Below are positions 7,131 through 64,000 of a DNA stretch of 64,000 nt, one piece after another (within the stretch, counting starts at the first letter, position 1; every line of letters begins with the position of its first letter). The stretch is from Octopus vulgaris. Its lineage: Eukaryota. The stretch spans positions 60,946,001 through 61,010,000 of the forward strand of contig OX597827.1 in NCBI GenBank assembly GCA_951406725.2. The letters run 5' to 3'. Under the pieces are notes generated by a model. The model was not told the origin of the DNA. It saw only the letters and a program-made list of their open reading frames with translations, and did no database searches. The position numbers and the translations under genes were made by a program.

Positions 7131-7372
7131 ATTCTAGAGAAGAGCTACAGCTAAAACTAGTTATTAAACAAACACTAGAAAAATGGCTGGGAGGAATAGG
7201 TGAATGAATATTAAGTGAACACTTCAGAATAACTGAACAGCTAGTGAATACTTTAGGAACATGCAGTGAAAATTTAGTGAACAGAACCTCAGCTAAAACC
7301 AGTTATTAAACAAATACTGGAGAAGTAGAGGTGAGGAATAGGTGAACATTTAGTGACAATTTCAGAATAATT

Positions 7373-7996
7373 GAACAATATATGGTCGGTGAACACTTCT
7401 GAATAACTGAACAATACATGGTCGGTGAACACTTCTGAATAACTGAACAATACATGGTCGGTGAACACTTCTGAATAACTGAACAATACATGGTCGGTGA
7501 ACACTTCTGAATAACTGAACAATACATGGTCGGTGAACACTTCTGAATAACTGAACAATACATGGTCGGTGAACACTTCTGAATAACTGAACAATACATG
7601 GTCGGTGAACACTTCTGAATAACTGAACAATACATGGTCGGTGAACACTTCTGAATAACTGAACAATACATGGTCGGTGAACACTTCTGAATAACTGAAC
7701 AATACATGGTCAGTGAACACTTCTGAATAACTGAACAATACATGGTCAGTGAACACTTCTGAATAACTGAACAATACATGGTCAGTGAACACTTCTGAAT
7801 AACTGAACAATACATGGTCAGTGAACACTTCTGAATAACTGAACAATACATGGTCAGTGAACACTTCTGAATAACTGAACAATACATGGTCAGTGAACAC
7901 TTCTGAATAACTGAACAATACATGGTCAGTGAACACTTCTGAATAACTGAACAATACATGGTCAGTGAACACTTCTGAATAATTGAACAATACATG
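7373..7996. repeat. 36-bp minisatellite, 17 full units plus a partial unit
   Basis: Unit gaacaatacatggtc(g/a)gtgaacacttctgaataact; no spacers. Confidence 0.97.
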
Positions 7997-19872: not shown

Positions 19873-22140
19873 AATAACAGCAATAATAGTTCATTTGCTA
19901 CAAGGGCAGTAAGCAATGAGACATGGCCTGGAAAAGTTGCAAAATGTCTTGGGAGTGAAATAAACAAACGAGAAAAAAAAAATCAACAGAATACAATGAT
20001 GATGATGATGACTCGTTCTTTTGTATTTTTTGCTGCCCTAGATACTGCTGTGGTGTCAGGTGCTTTGTTTTCATGCTCTAAATACCACCCAGCTGTTGTA
20101 GTCCAAAACGATATTTGTTTCTTCGCACACAAAGAGAAATATCACAAATGTCTTTATGACCGGATTTGACCTGCACAAAACAATCTAACCTTGGTTAACT
20201 ACTAACAGCAAACAGCCTTATTTTAAGGCTTATTGAACATTGAGAGAGCCATCACGCAACAGTCCTGTGGGCAATTGGATAAACTACAAGTGTTTATGTG
20301 CAAGAATGTTCCAGAACCTTTGTGTAAGGTCATGGACATTGTCCTTCCTCCAAACTTAAAAAAAAAAAAAATTATCCTTTTTTTTTTTCCCTTGCTGATG
20401 GAAGAATTACTTTACTTTTGAAATAAAATTCAGTAGGTACAAGCATGGCTGTGTGTTCGAGGGGTTCACTTTGCAACATGCTTTCAGGTTCAGGCCCACT
20501 TAATGGCATCTTCAATGGGTATTGTCTACTGCAGCCATTGGAAATCAATGCCTTGTGACTGAATGTGGTTGACAGAAACTGTATGGAAGCCAGTCATGCG
20601 TGTGTTTGGGCATGCACATGCTTGTGTCTTCTACAACCCCAGGCCAGCCGAATGCTACTTGAGGGAATGTGGTTCACAGAAACGGTCTGGAAACAGTGTA
20701 GAGGCAGTGAGCTGGCAGAAATGTTAGCACGCCGGGCGAAATGCTTAGTGGTGTTTTGTCTGCCGCTACGTTCTGAGTTCAAATTCTGCTGAGGTCAACT
20801 TTGCCTTTCATCCTTTCGAGGTTGATTAAATAAGTACCAGTTACACACTGGGGTCAATGTAATCGACTTATTCCGTTTGTATGTCCTTGTTTGTCCCCTC
20901 TGTGTGTAGCTCCTTGTGGGCAGTAAAGAAATAAGAAACGGTGTGGATGCTTGTTGTACATGTGTGTGTGTGTGCATGTGCACTGTCTTCTACTACAGCC
21001 CAAATGCCACTTGAATGAATGTGGTTGACGGAAACTGTGCAGAAGCCTGCCATATGTATGTGGTGGTGTGGAGTGTACGTGCTTGTGCGTCTTCTACTAC
21101 AACCCCAGGTCAATCAAATGCCACTTGAGCGAATGCAGTTGGTGGAAACTGTGTGGAAGCATGTCATGTGTGCGCGCATACCTGCTTGCTTTTGAGGGTG
21201 TGCTTGTGTCTATCTTCAACTACAGCACCAGGTTTGTGTGTGTGTGTGTTTACATGTATTTCTCTCTCACTGCTTGTTTGCTGAACAATGCTTTCTTATA
21301 GCTTCCTGAATATTTTGATACAGTTGACAGCCACTTCTCAGAAAGAAAAGGTCAAATGAGGCTCTTGTTCACAGAAATTCTTTTAAAAAAAAATGTATAT
21401 TCTGCCCAGTCAACTAAATGACATTTGTTGTAAGGTTGCAACCTTAATCTTATAAATCTGCAAATCCACTCAACTATTGAAGATTGCACTTTATATTTCA
21501 ATTGTTGATGCTCTTGTTTAACCCCAGGTCAACGATGAGTCAAGAAAACCATGATCAAAAGCGTTCCCTTTATCAATATTGTTGTGTCAGGCTGTGAGCT
21601 GGCAGAGAAGTTCGAATGCCAGGCAAAATGCTTTGCAGCTTTTTATTCATCTTTGCATTCTGAGTTCAAATTCTGCCGAGGTCAACTTTGCCTTTCATTC
21701 TTTCGGGGTTGATAAAATAAGTACCAGTTGGGTATTTGGATTGATGTAATCGACTTACCCACCCACCACCCCTGGCCTTGTGCCAAAATTTGAAATCAAT
21801 ATCTTGTACGTGTGTGTATGTTCTCTCAAACATATTCAGTTTCCGTTGTTGGTTGAGAGTGATTAAAGAGATATGTGGTTGCTATTTGTAAGTAATGAAT
21901 TGACTAAAAGATGTCAGGGAAAAGTCATTGGGAGGAAAGAAATAAGGAAACAAAAACTATTTTAAATCAGTTATTAACTGACAGTACATAATTTATATAT
22001 GATGCATTTACACATGTGCGGGAAAAAAATCTTGTATTCAATTTTTTAAGCAAAGGAAGACCAAAAAAAAATTTCAGTCATTTATTGGCAATACACGACA
22101 TGTACAGATTAAAAATGCTTTACACAGTAGAAATATCATT

Positions 22141-22858
22141 ATTTCTAATTCTCTATAAAGGGGACTACAGCAGTGGTACTGGATATTAATAGTTATTGCC
22201 AAGCTAACATCTATCTGGACTGCTATGTTAGCTTAGCGATAACTATTAATATCCAGTACCTATTTCTTTACTAACCACAAGGGGCTAAATACAGAAAGGA
22301 CAGACAAGGACAGACAAACGGATTAAGTCGATTATATCGACCCCAGTGCGTAACTGGTACTTATTTAATCGACCCCGAAAGGATGAAAGGCAAAGTCGAC
22401 CTCGGTGGAATTTGAACTCAGAACGTAGCAGCAGACGAAATACTGCTAAGCATCTCGCCCGGTGTGCTAACGTTTCTGCCAGCTCGCCGCCTTATTAATA
22501 TCCAATACCACTGCCGTAGTCTCCTTCAGAGAGAATTAGAAATGTTATTTCTATTTTTGAAAACCAGTGGATGTATTCCACTGAATTTAGGTAAATAATC
22601 CTTCGAACAGATGATCAGCAGTGCTCTTTCTGGGGTCGGCTGCTCTACATTGATAAGGGGCAAATACCCCGAAACTAGTCTGTAGATGCCAGACCAGCAA
22701 GGAGAAGCTGCTGACCTTCCCTGTTCGAAGGTTATAATGGACACAGGTTTGTGTGTCACATAGCTAGCTAGAGGCGATGGCCTCTTGGAGCTAATCAACG
22801 GCAGCATTCGTCCTATCTATCTGGACTGCCATGTTAGCTTGGCGATAACTATTGATAT
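22141..22858 (+). mobile_element. ~357-nt hammerhead retrozyme/Penelope-pLTR-like monomer with terminal direct repeat and 5' inverted arm, interrupted by a MetaSINE
   Basis: Direct repeat atctatctggactgc.atgttagctt.gcgataactatt at 22209 and 22815; inverted arm 22141-22210; SINE 22261-22492 with 17-bp TSD tattaatatcca(g/a)tacc. Confidence 0.75.
22644..22686 (+). ncRNA. Minimal type I hammerhead ribozyme, U3-A8 variant, GUC cleavage site at 22678-22680
   Basis: TCTACA-TTGATAA-GGGG caaata CCCC-GAAAC-TA-GTC-TGTAGA: perfect 6-bp stem I, 4-bp stem II, palindromic stem III ACTAGT. Confidence 0.75.
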
Positions 22859-25800
22859 ACTTTACACAGTATTGTGGCATTGCGTGAATATTTAGTATTT
22901 TTAATGTTGACAACTAAGACGTATATTCCAGTCCACACCACCAAGAAACTCTGCCACGCCCGTCAATCAACACACAAATGTATGAAGGTGTTCTTGTAGC
23001 TACACATAACTATTTTTTCCAGTGACATTTTTTTTTCCTGGATTTGACTAATATCATCCACTACCAAAATCGTAAATTCTTGGCTAATTTATTTAATGCT
23101 CCTTGCATTAAACAATGTGAATAAAACTTTATTTACTGATATACACTTTAAAAAGATGCTAAAAAAAAAGAGAAAACTGGGGGTGGGTAGGGTAGGAGCA
23201 GCCGAAGACGGAAAGGCAAGGGCGATAGGTCACATATCCCAGAACAAGAGGGGTGCTCAGCCACACCCCACAGTAATGACTGTGATGGCGTTGCCAAGGA
23301 GAATGGTTAGCGACACTCGCTGCAGTAGTCACTTCACCTTGAGGGGCTCATTTCTCAGACAGGATGCCGTTATCGCTATTGTGTAGAGGAAATCGGTGGT
23401 ACGAGGTCTTAGAACACCTGTTGTCTTGATAGCAACCAGTCAGGTTCCTCTACTTATTTCCCTCTTCTCTGCGTTATGGGTAGCGACACCGGGGTTTGCG
23501 GCAGATGCATTAAATACAGTTCTGTGGTGTTATGAGCCAGGCTGTGTTGTAGGGAAGGATCGGAAGTGAGGGAGTAAGTATGTCCTGTTGGAAGTGGGGC
23601 CTGTGGGTCCCACCTGAAGGGCTGTGGTGGGTATGCGGGATCAGTGAAGCGTGAGGAGCAAGTTTGTGGTGAACAGCACATCAGAGCAAACGTGTTAGAC
23701 TGTACAGCGACGGATAGCCCTTGTGGATATTGAGTGAACCTTGCAGATTGAGACAAAGCATGTGGACATTCAAAATTACCCTTTTTTCCGGACTGACAAG
23801 TAAGGCTACCGCAATTCTCTCTTCGCTTCCACCTTCTTGTTCCTTTACATCACAAGTTTGACACCAGCTTACCAAATATGTTAAGAAATCATTGAGTAGC
23901 AAACCGTAGCATCGCCTTTTAAACCGAAGTACACACATAAACTCATGTTACTTTTATCTGCCATGGATGGCTTTGACGATACATCAATAACCTACATTAC
24001 ATCAGAGACGTATCACGGTGAAAGAAAAAGGTGAAGGGAGTTCATCTGTACTTTTAGCTGTTATATATACACTATATTATTGACAAGAGACATCGAACAA
24101 AAAAGTTAAATCTCTCAAATCACACAATTAGGTCATTAAAACATTAGGAGAAATACAAGTGATATGTCTGAAAAATAAAATCAGATGGGAAAATCACAGA
24201 TGCAGCACTGTTGATCAATAAGGAACATTTGTGATCTGGGCTGACTTGAATCTAAGCAACATATATATATTATTTGTATGACTATTTAGCCACACAAAAG
24301 TTACATTATTTTAAACAAAGCTATCACTAACATGAAATCTTATTCACTGGGTTAACTAGAGTGTGGTAGGTTTGACTACCGACATATCAAATGTAAAACG
24401 AAATTATTTAAGTACCAACAGAGGTAGATTTCTACGTGGTCGTTTGACCTATTATAAATAGCGGCCAAATTTTCCTTAAATCTCTATTATTATTATTATC
24501 ATTATTATTATTATTATTATTATTATGCACCTTACTTTTGGCCCAGACAGAAGGCAGTAACCATAGTCCTTTACAGGGTCCCCTAATACTTACTGGTGGG
24601 AGAGAAGGAAGTATCTTCAAGCTGGGAACCAAGCTCGAATGCTTGCAACAGAGTGGAGTCTGTTAAAGATACCCAAGGCACCAGTTTGTGATGTTAATTC
24701 GGATTAAGTCTATGTCCCATGTAATGCCATGGTGGAATTTGAACTCAGAACACAGGGAGCTGGAACGAATGCCGCAAGGCATCCGGCCCAACGTTTTTAC
24801 ACCTCCATCCAACTTCCACCATGGATTATTACCTTTTTTTATCAGCCCTGAAAGGATGTAAGTCAAAGTTGACCTCAGCCGAGTTTGAACTCAGGAGAGT
24901 TGGGATCTTTGTGGCTTTTGTCACTGTTTACAATCATCTTTTTAAAAAAAAAAAATTTAATATATAAGATGTAATTTTTGACGCTGAATCCAAATTTATT
25001 CTTCATCTGTTCCAGAAAAATTTTGCTAAAATGTCAGGTGTTCAAAGTTTGATAGGTTTCAGAATTTTCAGCCAATCAGAAAACAGCACGTTCGCTGCCT
25101 CTTCCATCATTCGGATCTTTGGTTACTATGGACACAGAGTTCTTCACCACAGTGATGTGTAAAATACTCACTTCTGATTGGCTAAAATACCCAAATTTTG
25201 AAAATTTTAAAGGCTGATAACTTTTTAATTATGGTTTTATAGGGAAAATAAATTTCATCTTCATAATTAGTATACAAAACTTAATCCATATACTAAATTT
25301 GAAAATAATTCGAACAAAATTGTAAAGAGTGACGAAAACCACAAATACCATCCAATGATCAACTGTCTTAAAAGGAAAAAAAAAAGTATTGATTACAACA
25401 CTGATCAATGTAGTGTTAGACATGCGATACCTGACAAGAAGAGAGGGACTAGGTGGGTCAATTGACATAGGTCTACGATTTCGAGAGGGACTGTGCCTCC
25501 TCCTCTTCCTCCTCCCCAGGTCAGATCAAATAGAAAACCTTTTGGCAAAAAATTTCTCCTTTTTTTAAAATCATTCTAGTTCTTCTATTTCATTCTGTTA
25601 CATCAGGACGGAATTAAAGATTTAAGTACATCATGTAACACACATACACACAATAATCGACAGAGGTTACAGACTCAAGGGCCGAGAGTTTCCTGCATTA
25701 GCACTTATCAACTAATACACAAAGTACTTGAGTTTCTTTAACCTCTGTCTATTATTAAATGAAACCTAACTTTCGTTATATTGTTTCATCCAACTACCGC

Positions 25801-47002: not shown

Positions 47003-47065
<63 letters not shown>

Positions 47066-47950
47066 GTTTGTGTGTCTGTGTTTGTGTCCCCAACATCGCT
47101 TGACAACCGATACTTTGGGTCGACCAAAGCCTTGTGAGTGGATTTGGTAGACTTAAACTGAAAGACCGTCTCTCTCTCACTCACACACACATATATATAT
47201 ATATATGTGTTTGTGTGTCTGTGTTTGTGTCCCCAACATCGCTTGACAACCGATACTTTGGGTCGACCAAAGCCTTGTGAGTGGATTTGGTAGACGGAAA
47301 CTGAAAGACCGTCTCTCTCTCACTCACACACACATATATATATATATATGTTTGTGTGTCTGTGTTTGTGTCCCCAACATCGCTTGACAACCGATACTTT
47401 GGGTCGACCAAAGCCTTGTGAGTGGATTTGGTAGACTTAAACTGAAAGACCGTCTCTCTCTCACTCACACACACATATATATATGTTTGTGTGTCTGTGT
47501 TTGTGTCCCCAACATCGCTTGACAACCGATACTTTGGGTCGACCAAAGCCTTGTGAGTGGATTTGGTAGACGGAAACTGAAAGACCGTCTCTCTCTCACT
47601 CACACACACATATATATATATATGTTTGTGTGTCTGTGTTTGTGTCCCCAACATCGCTTGACAACCGATACTTTGGGTCGACCAAAGCCTTGTGAGTGGA
47701 TTTAGTAGACGGAAACTGAAAGAAGCCCGTCGTATATATTTATATATGTGTGTGTGTGTGTTTGTGTGTCTGTGTTTGTCTCTCCAACATCGCTTGACAA
47801 CCGATGCTGGTATGTTTACGTCCCCGTAACTTAGCGGTTCGGCAAGAGAGACCGATAGAATAAGTACTAAGCTTACAAAGAATAAGTCCTGGGGTCGATT
47901 TGCTCGACTAAGGCGGTGCTCCAGTATAGCCGCAGTCAAATTACTTAAAA
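46840..47950 (+). mobile_element. SINE family A with an internal ~140-bp segment tandemly amplified
   Basis: Unit starts at 46944, 47121, 47264, 47405, 47540 and 47679. Confidence 0.92.
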
Positions 47951-50270: not shown

Positions 50271-50413
50271 CGCAACACACAGTAATACCTCACTTTAAGA
50301 GGACCCACCTTACAAGACCCCGAGTTTGCGAGTTTTATTATAAACTTTTCAAGCAAAAGATCGAAATTTTGAACGAAGTGCAAAAGTTTCTACTGCCATA
50401 ACAAATAGACGGA

Positions 50414-50486
50414 GGTAAAGGATACGCACACCACCCGTTTTCGGCGTAACCCTAACCCTAAACACCGGGTGTGCGTATTCTTTACC
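50414..50486. mobile_element. 73-bp MITE with GGTAA...TTACC TIRs and internal (CCCTAA)2
   Basis: ggtaaaggatacgcacacc / ggtgtgcgtattctttacc; no clear TSD. Confidence 0.6.
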
Positions 50487-50559
50487 ATCACCAACAAATG
50501 CTTCTGCGTTTTACCGAGAAATTTATAGAGCGCGAAAAAAGGCTTCTAAGTGAACAAGA

Positions 50560-50949
50560 GGTTAGCCATGATAAGATGGCTTCTATACTTTACATTATCG
50601 AGCGATTACTGTTTCAATCTCATTCTGAGATTTAATTATGCTTACTGTTCGTTTTTCGACATCAGTGGCAGATGCCATTAGAAAAACATATCTATTTGCA
50701 AAGGAGCCTTCTCTTTCATCGCTACCTGGTGGTTACCGCCCGTTGACGAGGGACAAAAATCCCGAAACTAGTTCGATTGTATCACTCAGGCTTGCGAGGA
50801 AGGGATGGCCTCCCTTTGCAAATACTCCAAGGACACAGATATTGTGTCTAAAGCCAGCTAGAGACGAAGATCTCTTGGGGCTATAAAGCTACAGTAACAC
50901 CCCCTCCCCAATGTGGTTAGCCATGATAAGATGGCTTCTATACTTTACA
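50560..50949 (+). mobile_element. 355-nt hammerhead retrozyme/pLTR-like monomer with 35-bp terminal direct repeat
   Basis: ggttagccatgataagatggcttctatactttaca at 50560-50594 and 50915-50949; 3' part aligns with 22739-22795. Confidence 0.75.
50741..50775 (+). ncRNA. Minimal type I hammerhead motif (U3/G8, weak proximal stem I)
   Basis: cg-TTGACGA-GGGA caaaaa TCCC-GAAAC-TA-GTT-cg. Confidence 0.6.
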
Positions 50950-51149
50950 ATTCTAGGCTTGTTTTTTAAAAAAGAAATGCACAGGTGATGGTGCGCGCGA
51001 GATTAATGCGAGTGAAAGGGATTCCAAAAACTATTATAAAAATATTTTTTATTATAAATGATCTTGACATTCTTTTTACTTTACATAAATTATTCTTGAT
51101 TCTACAATTGTTTTATTGGAATTTATTTACGAGGATTATAAATGTAATA

Positions 51150-55578: not shown

Positions 55579-55627
<49 letters not shown>

Positions 55628-55912
55628 TATATTGAACATATATATATTTGTATTGCACATATATAATTTATATTGGATATATATGTAATTTATATTGGAT
55701 ATATATGTAATTTATATTGCATATATATATGTAATTTATATTGCATATATATATGTAATTTATATTGCATATATATATGTAATTTATATTGCATATATAT
55801 ATGTAATTTATATTGCATATATATATGTAATTTATATTGCATATATATATAATTTATATTGCATATATATATAATTTATATTGCATATATATATATATAA
55901 TTTATATTGCAT
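55560..55912. repeat. AT-rich ~22-26-bp minisatellite
   Basis: (tatatgtaatttatattgcata)n with variable TA count. Confidence 0.9.
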
Positions 55913-56702
55913 ACACACACACATACAAGTGAGTGGACAAACAAAAGAAAGTAGCTCAAAATATTTGGTTGGAATTACATGACCTAACCACGTCAGGCAT
56001 GTTCTCTAGATCAAAATAAATTAGCATTGGGCCCCTGGTGGACTCACAAATCTAGTGTCCCGCATAGTGTCCATGCATACTACCCAGCATGCCCATGCTT
56101 TAGGACAGAACTTTTGCCAGATTTCTGTGAAAGTAGTTGTGATTATGTAGATTATGGGTTCGCAGTCTATTACTGAGAACACATACTATTTGTGTAAAGT
56201 GTTTAGCTCCACGTGGACTCCCTGCCTGTAAGCAAAGACGGTAGAATACAAGACAAACCAATTATATATAAGAGGGGATCTGGAGAAATCTGGCCGATAT
56301 TTCTAATAGGTCGTATGTATTAAAATAAAGCTGCTATGTCGTTAAGAAGCTCGATTTGTAACCATATGGTTTCGGGATCAATCCCATTGCGCTGCACTTA
56401 GGACAAGTGTATTTTACGGTAGCACAGGACCGGCAATGCCCTGAGTGAATTTGGTAGGCGGAAACTGTATGGAAGCCCACCATGTGTATATATGTGCGCG
56501 TGCACTACTCCTTGACAACCAGTATTGGCAGATCGGCAAAAAAAAAAGAAAAAAAGCCGATACATTAAAGTAACAGACTTCAAAATACTAAGTACAGGGG
56601 TTGATTTTTTTTCCGACTAAAACCCTTCAAGGCGGTGTCCAAGCATGGTTGCAGTCCAATGACTGAAACCGGAGGTGAATAAGAGAGATAAAACAAACAT
56701 AC

Positions 56703-63379: not shown

Positions 63380-64000
63380 CAATGCTCAAGCAAAAAGGAC
63401 TGATTGATTCAATAGCAGAGCCCTGAGAACCATCAAGAACACTAGATGGTACCATCACATTTCCAACCGAGAACATATCAGCCCAAGCATCCCACCACAC
63501 AGTTATATGCCATATGCTCTGGTACTGACATATCCTCTGCCTTATGTGCTGGTACGGACATGTTTTCCACTGTATGCACTGGTACGGACATGTCCTCCAT
63601 TGTATGCACTGGTACGGACATGTCCTCCACCGTATGCACTGGTAAGGACATGTCCTCCACCGTATGCACTGGTAAGGACATGTCCTCCACCGTATGCACT
63701 AGTAAGGACATGTCCTCCCCCGTATGCACTGGTACGGACATGTCCTCCACCGTATGCACTGGTAAGGACATGTCTTTCACCGTATGCACTGGTAAGGACG
63801 TCTTTCACCGTATGCACTAGTAAGGACATGTCCTCCCCCGTATGCACTGGTAAGGACATGTCCTCCACCGTATGCACTGGTAAAGACATGTCCTCCACCA
63901 TTTGAACTGATACAGACATTCTTCCGCCTCCTGCTAAATCATCCAGTCAGAACCTATTATCTACTCAAGCTTACCCTACTGATGCAGATTGCCCAGTGTT
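63380..64000 (+). mobile_element. RTE LINE RT C-terminal remnant containing a 30-bp minisatellite
   Basis: KRTD*FNSRALRTIKNTRWYHHISNRE before the array; unit encodes RMHWYGHVLH; RLLLNHPVR after it. Confidence 0.7.
63515..63900. repeat. 30-bp minisatellite, about 13 units
   Basis: cgtatgcactggta(c/a)ggacatgtcctccac. Confidence 0.95.

Follow-up and report, generated by a model that had tools for sequence, protein, structure and literature searches.

How do two genomic elements whose closing stems differ in sequence come to share one RNA shape, and by what route do such elements spread? The question is raised by a window of 64,000 nt from Octopus vulgaris (C14:60946001-61010000 in the searched assembly), in which an original prediction described one rod-forming, hammerhead-bearing element near 22 kb and another near 50 kb. 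The genome (2.8 Gb, 227 contigs) was searched for copies of the family. The reading favoured here, at a probability of about 0.7, is that both are copies of a ~357-nt retroelement that likely has its own U1/U2-type promoter, carries a predicted hammerhead, is likely pasted by Penelope machinery, and receives LINEs at its predicted transcription start.

Two units of one geometry

The two window elements are called A (the 50-kb copy, of subfamily A) and B (the 22-kb copy, of subfamily B), and their features are collected in Table 1. The shared rod geometry that had been claimed was recovered: both rods span 132 nt, with core position 3 (50743 in A, 22650 in B) lying 50 nt in, and both contain the described 4-bp stem II with its 6-nt loop, GAAACTAGT and the pair of hairpins further downstream. 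The periods of 355 and 357 nt were likewise obtained; A lacks 2 nt of the 357-nt family unit, and for B 606 nt minus the 249-nt inserted repeat gives 357. The inverted segment at the start of the B insertion was missing from the original prediction. No open reading frame of at least 120 aa lies over either element.

Table 1. Features of the A and B elements, in window positions.
Feature	Position	Strand	Remarks
Subfamily A copy	50560..50949	+	one 355-nt unit followed by the initial 34 nt of a second; 3' end short and untailed
T run, A	50652..50656	+	sole run of four or more T in the A unit, directly 5' of the PSE-like motif
PSE-like motif, A	50658..50673	+	ATCAGT at 50661, 57 nt 5' of 50718; best U1/U2-matrix site of the A unit
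A rod	50693..50824	+	132 nt, hammerhead at tip; closing stem 50693-50704/50813-50824
Empty LINE target, A	50718..50731	+	14 bp, duplicated where occupied; first base is the predicted transcription start
Type I hammerhead-like motif, A	50737..50779	+	stem I 50737-50742/50774-50779
Hammerhead core, A	50743..50749	+	U3.G8; stem II 50750-50753/50760-50763
Palindromic helix III, A	50767..50772	+	predicted cleavage after 50773 (GUU)
Two hairpins 3' of A rod	50831..50883	+	50831-50849 and 50856-50883
Inverted 5' segment of B insertion	22128..22210	-	bears the long (tailed) end
Truncated upstream B unit	22209..22259	+	continues into the next unit
Dispersed repeat, family D15	22260..22492	+	unrelated; inserted in the B element with a ~16-bp duplication
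Subfamily B unit	22493..22860	+	short 3' end, two hairpins
T5 run, B	22554..22558	+	
PSE-like motif, B	22560..22575	+	
B rod	22600..22731	+	132 nt; closing stem 22600-22610/22721-22731
Hammerhead core, B	22650..22656	+	U3-A8; predicted cleavage after 22680 (GUC)

Another repeat (window 50410-50530 and 51007-51100), with a hairpin around CCCTAA-like units, seems to surround the A copy, and sequencing-run contigs join across the insertion between these flanks. Tandem arrays were also seen in the window at 7361-7996 (36 nt), 47050-47805 (141-143 nt), 55612-55913 (24 nt) and 63513-63919 (30 nt), and the 141-nt array is built of a SINE-like fragment.

A diverse family with selected RNA structure

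A and B represent two subfamilies of one diverse non-coding family, which comprises many hundreds of small ribozyme-bearing elements. Strict sequence patterns matched at least 461 and at least 683 genomic sites, and the controls matched none. Identity among the top copies was 96-98% in subfamily A, 87-91% in B and 90-97% in C, as read from 40 scored of 1959 (A), 2673 (B) and 3496 (C) candidates, which are not copy numbers. Most copies are 1-1.5 units long; locus L013 holds two full 357-nt units head to tail, with partial units, and on contigs C2 and C3 cores stand 357-358 nt apart as tandem units. More distant subfamilies were seen at L223, L217 (family G), L032:2630-2836 (family F), L042 and L127:4018-4216, and family G has a unit of ~380-390 nt and a CCGAUGA core.

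The original prediction had read the covariation of the stems as selection on RNA structure, and this was borne out. Both window units fold stably (z-scores of -4.65 for A and -6.46 for B), with 0 of 100 shuffles equally stable. Between them 16 of the 36 modelled pairs differ, comprising 12 two-sided swaps with pairing kept, 2 one-sided changes with pairing kept and 2 pairs that are unpaired in A. Among 28 natural copies in five groups, two-sided change was found in 20 of the 36 pairs, and 92% of the cells were paired versus 29-51% with the partners slid, a count biased toward its model because the structure came from folds of individual copies. The closing stem, which RNAalifold did not recover from the mixed alignment, was likewise drawn from those folds. 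Hairpin 1 was left out of the count, B being misaligned there by one column; the second hairpin covaries between subfamilies. Counted on a tree, independent compensatory events numbered 8 and were spread over 7 branches, where the null mean was 0.6 (0 of 2000 shuffles); because the root divided the A/B branch in this test, the A/B swaps stand outside the 8 events. A covariance model found exactly two matches in the window, A and B, both members of its training set, and also recovered the distant G family, from outside the training set, at 69 bits. These data support selection on the RNA structure of the family.

Hammerhead core variants

An initial core expression was too tight, and the core variants were read from the alignment instead. 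Among 148 distinct cores, positions 3 and 8 were C-G in 49, U-A in 48, U.G in 48 and C.A in 3, and helix III was palindromic in 133, with six spellings. Subfamily A has U3.G8 with GUU, B has U3-A8 with GUC, and C has C3-G8 with GUC; neither window core is canonical, a point on which the original prediction was silent. Both U3.G8 and GUU occur in 28 of 28 A copies and are thus a family trait rather than decay. Subfamily C mostly has a C.A mismatch closing stem II, and given this mismatch and the U3.G8 and GUU of A, the most amplified subfamilies may cleave poorly. The C3-G8, U3-A8 and U3.G8 subfamilies offer a natural series for asking whether spread needs cleavage.

Self-cleavage of the units by the hammerhead is predicted from the modelled motif. 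An Rfam scan of the window gave no match at the gathering score; the 50-kb core reached 26.9 bits against Hammerhead_HH9 (E 0.0054; cut-off 52), whose list had no entry for the 22-kb core. Both U3-A8 and a palindromic helix III that requires a dimer are described for Penelope hammerheads in the available text of PMC4209133, and for Xenopus the available text of a preprint reports cleavage of one of nine dimers (bioRxiv 10.64898/2026.07.22.740005). The unit is covered by sequencing-run contigs (three runs guessed to be RNA and one of unknown type), with no circle-diagnostic joint among them.

Insertion ends and the probable Penelope partner

Insertion ends were compared at 28 distinct A loci, L003 and L021 having been dropped as duplicates. 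The 3' ends fall at unit position 32-40 in 18 of 28 and at 79-88 in 10 of 28, within a set of matches chosen for full length in which ends before ~32 cannot show. These two classes agree with the claim of Penelope-type ends rather than random circular permutation. The 5' ends, in turn, are spread over the unit, and the similar start of both terminal repeats, which the original prediction had treated as a feature, did not hold up. An optional tail of ~45 nt (about 45-60 nt) is found at the 3' end, an inverted segment is present at 13 of the 28 loci, and wherever both ends could be read (10 of 10) one end was long and tailed and the other short. Repeats of TA or TAA flank 10 of 28 A loci, versus 3.8% of window bins. 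The fixed 3' end, the optional tail at one end, the inverted 5' copy and the microsatellite targets match the Penelope insertion signatures given in the available text of PMC8557442 and PMC3846280.

A viroid-like circular RNA that replicates from RNA to RNA and integrates in random permutation would suit the stable fold, the many divergent subfamilies with compensatory change and the copies of more than a unit. Such an agent is nonetheless highly improbable, given that the 3' ends lie in two narrow classes, that one exact core pattern gave 0 matches in metagenome contigs, and that the upstream extensions start where a template in linear form, or stalling at the rod, would place them. Of 26 such extensions, 24 have their first base at unit position 207 or beyond, with one exception at 138, close to the predicted cleavage site or past it. 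In L013-type A copies 11 of the 26 start at unit 235-268, in the neighbourhood of the rod's 3' arm, which looks like stalling of reverse transcription there. From the proposed viroid-like structured ribozyme retroelement family, the ribozyme retroelement family survives, and the viroid-like part gives way to a fit with published non-LTR retrozymes.

A GIY-YIG search, with 150 of 6136 candidates scored, yielded three Penelope families. The first, P1, has an intact 781-aa ORF with reverse transcriptase and GIY-YIG, and its CxxxxCxxC linker makes it Neptune/Nematis type by the criterion in the available text of PMC8557442. It has a minimal U3-A8 hammerhead-like motif, and its ends show a ~38-nt tail in 5 of 18 readable cases and TA repeats in 18 of 18. 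P1 (L123, L124, L125) is a young family in which many of the 781-aa ORFs are intact and the 3' UTR contains short tandem repeats. The units have the same end features as these Neptune-like Penelope elements. No similarity between the unit ends (A, B, C) and the P1 or P2 ends was found in 6 comparisons (best 9/200 shuffles); the 3' ends of P1 and P2 are AT-rich, unlike the unit, and that of P3 was read in one copy.

A Penelope protein match was present in the flank of 5 of 211 rod-bearing loci. The linked autonomous Penelope ORF that had been envisaged was joined to the unit in pLTR arrangement at 0 of the 211, within the flanks examined. The five loci, considered as possible joined elements, look like neighbours (two were inspected further and three judged by strand and distance), and L215 is two insertions in one TA run. 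The units might still be truncated terminal repeats, a pLTR plus tail, of an autonomous Penelope that escaped detection: every end feature of the unit is a Penelope feature, and with the scored fraction of GIY-YIG candidates families may be missed. This is quite unlikely, however, for the tail consists of the beginning of the following unit, the natural head-to-tail units of L013 show a repeat that closes on itself with no internal region in between, the 211 loci lack a joined Penelope ORF in the flanks examined, and the P1 and P2 3' ends are unlike the unit. The phrase 'pLTR plus tail' was right for the end structure, but at these loci the unit was not seen bounding a Penelope ORF.

The Penelope end signature, without a joined ORF or similarity to P1 and P2, places the units among non-LTR retrozymes in the sense of PMC7229834 and the 2026 preprint. 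In that class the non-coding units range from 150 to 450 nt, bear a type I hammerhead motif and include tandem copies with at least two ribozymes; the present units are non-coding, measure 355-357 nt, have the motif, and occur in tandem at L013 and in the C2 and C3 core pairs. Judged by sequence, the units are non-LTR retrozymes, a known kind, and the family likely rides on Penelope retrotransposons.

LINEs inserted in the rod and in U2 genes

Two cores 5.65 kb apart were found to enclose a LINE with a zinc knuckle (ORF1), APE, RT and zf-RVT domains (Pfam). It belongs to the L1 group, its best solved relative being LINE-1 ORF2p (E 4e-53 versus 2e-23 for R2), and the closest named relative of a LINE protein of this genome is from Argonauta hians, at 62%. 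LINE1 and LINE2, which are ~82% identical, appear from their sequences to be Tx1-like families of the L1 group. LINE1 was sampled by a search with its 3' end alone, the flank being omitted, together with a pattern count and fetched loci; the pattern gave 41 exact ends and the control 0. Of 45 distinct LINE1 3' ends, 42 enter the rod at one base, and 3 have the same target and then a stacked LINE. Among 41 loci read for the duplication, from which 7 were set aside as truncated or out of range and L220 was dropped, 32 of 34 full-length LINE loci have at least 12 nt duplicated, spelled like the host subfamily; the length of the duplication is 14 bp. At 35 loci the LINE ends are 97.3% alike (minimum 94) and the hosts 79.2% (minimum 50), and with alike LINE ends, diverse hosts and no correlation between them (rho -0.06), the insertions are best explained as independent. 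The bare target motif occurs 4359 times in the genome and 683 times, as a lower bound, in the strict rod context, which suggests that more than the bare motif is read.

There is hardly any likelihood that the LINE is an autonomous partner with the units as its terminal repeats, or that one LINE-unit chimera was amplified. Units do flank the LINE on both sides, and at L141 and L149 a LINE end and a unit moved together. The LINE, however, splits the unit with a host-specific 14-bp duplication, which largely refutes both versions, and the site is shared by 5'-truncated LINEs (L143, L216, L223, L228); LINE and host similarity are, as noted, uncorrelated. As a separate observation, at L141, L149/L202 and L264 the LINE 3' end and the retrozyme that apparently moved together show a Penelope-type inverted segment, so that a retrozyme can apparently carry LINE cargo.

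Thirty LINE2 loci were read, of which 19 lie in the rod, 4 directly 5' of a full-length U2 and 4 stacked on another LINE; one has a U2 14-mer between stacked copies, and 2 are elsewhere. In U2 genes LINE2 inserts at +1. With 42 of 45 and 19 of 30 flanks in the rod, LINE1 and LINE2 both exceed the >20% of flanks by which target-specific LINEs are recognised in the available text of PMC4494074. Subfamily A hosts both LINEs (L192; L235, L241, L242, L249), and subfamily B hosts 0 of the 45 LINE1 insertions and none of LINE2 in the sample of 30 loci. LINE ends were not found near 25 U1 and 25 U6 loci, a sample too small to inform. The LINE is inserted almost only at the predicted start of the promoter, in retrozymes and in U2 genes.

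Three full-length U2-resident LINE2 copies, on two contigs, have the 14-bp U2 duplication followed by a 14-nt subfamily-A target. This leader begins exactly at the predicted start base, as expected if the donor lay in an A unit transcribed from there, and the three copies may descend from one event. The 14-nt leader would then be the fossil trace of a LINE that passed from a retrozyme into a U2 gene. At L232, L257, L258 and L265 a site of this kind holds a stacked LINE with yet another 5' end, different from those of LINE1 and LINE2. At L189, L215, L221 and L225 the two copies of the duplication are not identical, the upstream one departing from its downstream counterpart toward the C spelling in three of these loci; such upstream copies may be a donor-derived leader or the product of drift.

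A candidate U1/U2-type promoter

In 25 of 25 U1 and 7 of 7 U2 flanks a motif resembling ATCAGT is found 56-60 nt upstream of +1; it is absent upstream of the U6 array. The motif was noticed by eye before a matrix was built from 8 U1/U2 promoter types, the flanks being largely array paralogues. In 35 of 36 mutually related LINE hosts the best matrix site lies 57-61 nt before the LINE site, the exception following another LINE; the spacing is kept within 4 nt in these 35, including the distant G family. The window copies score 11.3 bits (A) and 17.4 bits (B), where the background at 10 bits or more is 1e-4, and one A copy scores 3.7 bits only. At the place of the motif, 11 contiguous bases of B are identical to those of a U2 promoter. 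A U1/U2 motif at the same spacing, with the start taken from the LINE site, characterises a snRNA-type (PSE) promoter, and the unit likely carries one of U1/U2 type. A Pol III promoter would fit the single T5 run, but the U6 flanks differ and most copies include the promoter region. The snRNA gene arrays lie at L277-L281 (U6), L294-L318 (U1) and L259-L263 (U2); many other U6 matches have no common upstream sequence and look like retrocopies.

The promoter match could instead reflect chance or an RNA hairpin, with the LINE merely reading DNA that resembles the 5' end of U2. The motif was chosen post hoc and also falls within a predicted hairpin, the LINE target and the U2 5' end share 9 of 12 bases, and subfamily B combines the best promoter match with no LINE1 insertion (0/45). 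This explanation is considered unlikely, as the spacing is kept even in family G, B matches the U2 promoter over 11 contiguous bases, and the LINE2 leader begins at the predicted +1. A newt hammerhead satellite, moreover, is reported with a snRNA-type promoter (as cited in the available text of PMC2220036).

Proposed pathway of spread

In the preferred reading, that of a Penelope-pasted retrozyme with its own promoter, SNAPc-type factors would bind the motif at -57 to -61, and transcription would begin 25 nt 5' of the core and read through tandem units. Read-through is suggested because the AACAGA-like sequence found behind U1/U2 genes was not seen, by eye, at the tail end. Taken by themselves, the 113 nt beginning at the predicted start fold like shuffles (z 0.01), so the rod needs read-through or a circle. 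The palindromic helix III could let two tandem ribozymes cleave as a dimer, and the rod would keep the two ends of the released unit together, making ligation to a circle possible; a linear multimer would also suffice. The pasting of copies, whose footprint is observed, would be the work of a Penelope enzyme. With the promoter placed 5' of the start, a copy must exceed ~1.5 units to transmit it, which would make a dead end of the 50-kb copy with its 1.1 units. The LINE endonuclease probably recognises an RTCG-N4-YYGG-like sequence within a longer context; the LINE would gain a strong promoter and a harmless multicopy site.

Since both targets are, on this reading, the +1 of a snRNA-type promoter, the LINE may choose a promoter and not only a safe site, which offers a directly testable reason for the target choice of Tx1 elements. 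The Keno target, by comparison, lies inside U2, at about nt 38, and not at U2 +1. Yeast Ty3 and Dictyostelium TRE5-A insert at a fixed distance from small-RNA gene promoters, tethered by Pol III factors; for the present LINEs sequence recognition is the simpler reading. A three-tier chain, in which a Penelope-spread retrozyme has captured a U1/U2 promoter and bound SNAPc steers the LINE to its start, much as Pol III factors steer Ty3, is tentative and probably too strong. If true, the LINE would always be transcribed from its landing pad and could hop between retrozymes and U2 genes.

Comparison with known systems

Retrozymes, Tx1 elements that target transposons or U2, and a snRNA promoter in a hammerhead repeat are each already known, as far as the available texts go. 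Animal non-LTR retrozymes were described by Cervera & de la Pena 2020 (PMC7229834) and by Li, Clavereau & Pollet 2026 (bioRxiv 10.64898/2026.07.22.740005). The octopus units resemble the retrozymes in these texts: they are non-coding, have a length of 350-390 nt as in mussel, bear a type I hammerhead, are present both in tandem and as solo copies, and co-occur with Penelope elements. Unlike published animal retrozymes, the cores here are mostly non-canonical, the partial tandems are dispersed, the Penelope end signature is full, and no pLTR parent was found. The available text of both sources names no cephalopod among retrozymes, and that of the 2026 preprint makes no mention of a promoter, snRNA or Tx1. 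In a literature search mostly outside subscription papers and excluding Repbase, Dfam and supplements, no report of octopus retrozymes was found, nor, within the same scope, of Tx1 targeting a hammerhead element or a snRNA start site. Animal retrozymes would gain, in an invertebrate, a concrete, testable promoter and start site, and the end structure points to Penelope machinery as what places them.

With Penelope hammerheads, as far as described in the available text of PMC4209133, PMC8557442 and PMC3846280, the units share partial tandems, the inverted 5' copy, the tail at one end and microsatellite targets. They further share with Penelope elements a palindromic helix III, the U3-A8 variant (Schistosoma Cercyon) and the trans-mobilisation of cargo by terminal sequences. 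They differ in having no ORF and a tail of ~45-60 nt versus 30-40, and, from the minimal Penelope hammerhead, in a GC-rich rod with a long stem I. The newt satellite 2 (Coats, Zhang & Epstein 1994, cited in the available text of PMC2220036) is a hammerhead repeat with an internal snRNA-type promoter. It is an amphibian tandem satellite whose promoter is experimental, whereas that of the octopus unit is inferred, and the text makes no mention of LINE targeting.

Target-specific Tx1-clade LINEs include Tx1L in Tx1D, Tx1-Mar in Mariner-N4 and Keno in U2 (available text of PMC4494074 and PMC4640811). Like them, the octopus LINEs are APE-type members of the L1 group that use one site of a multicopy element or U2 and stack on one another. 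Unlike those described there, they have as target a hammerhead retroelement at its predicted snRNA-type start, and one lineage uses both this start and U2 +1.
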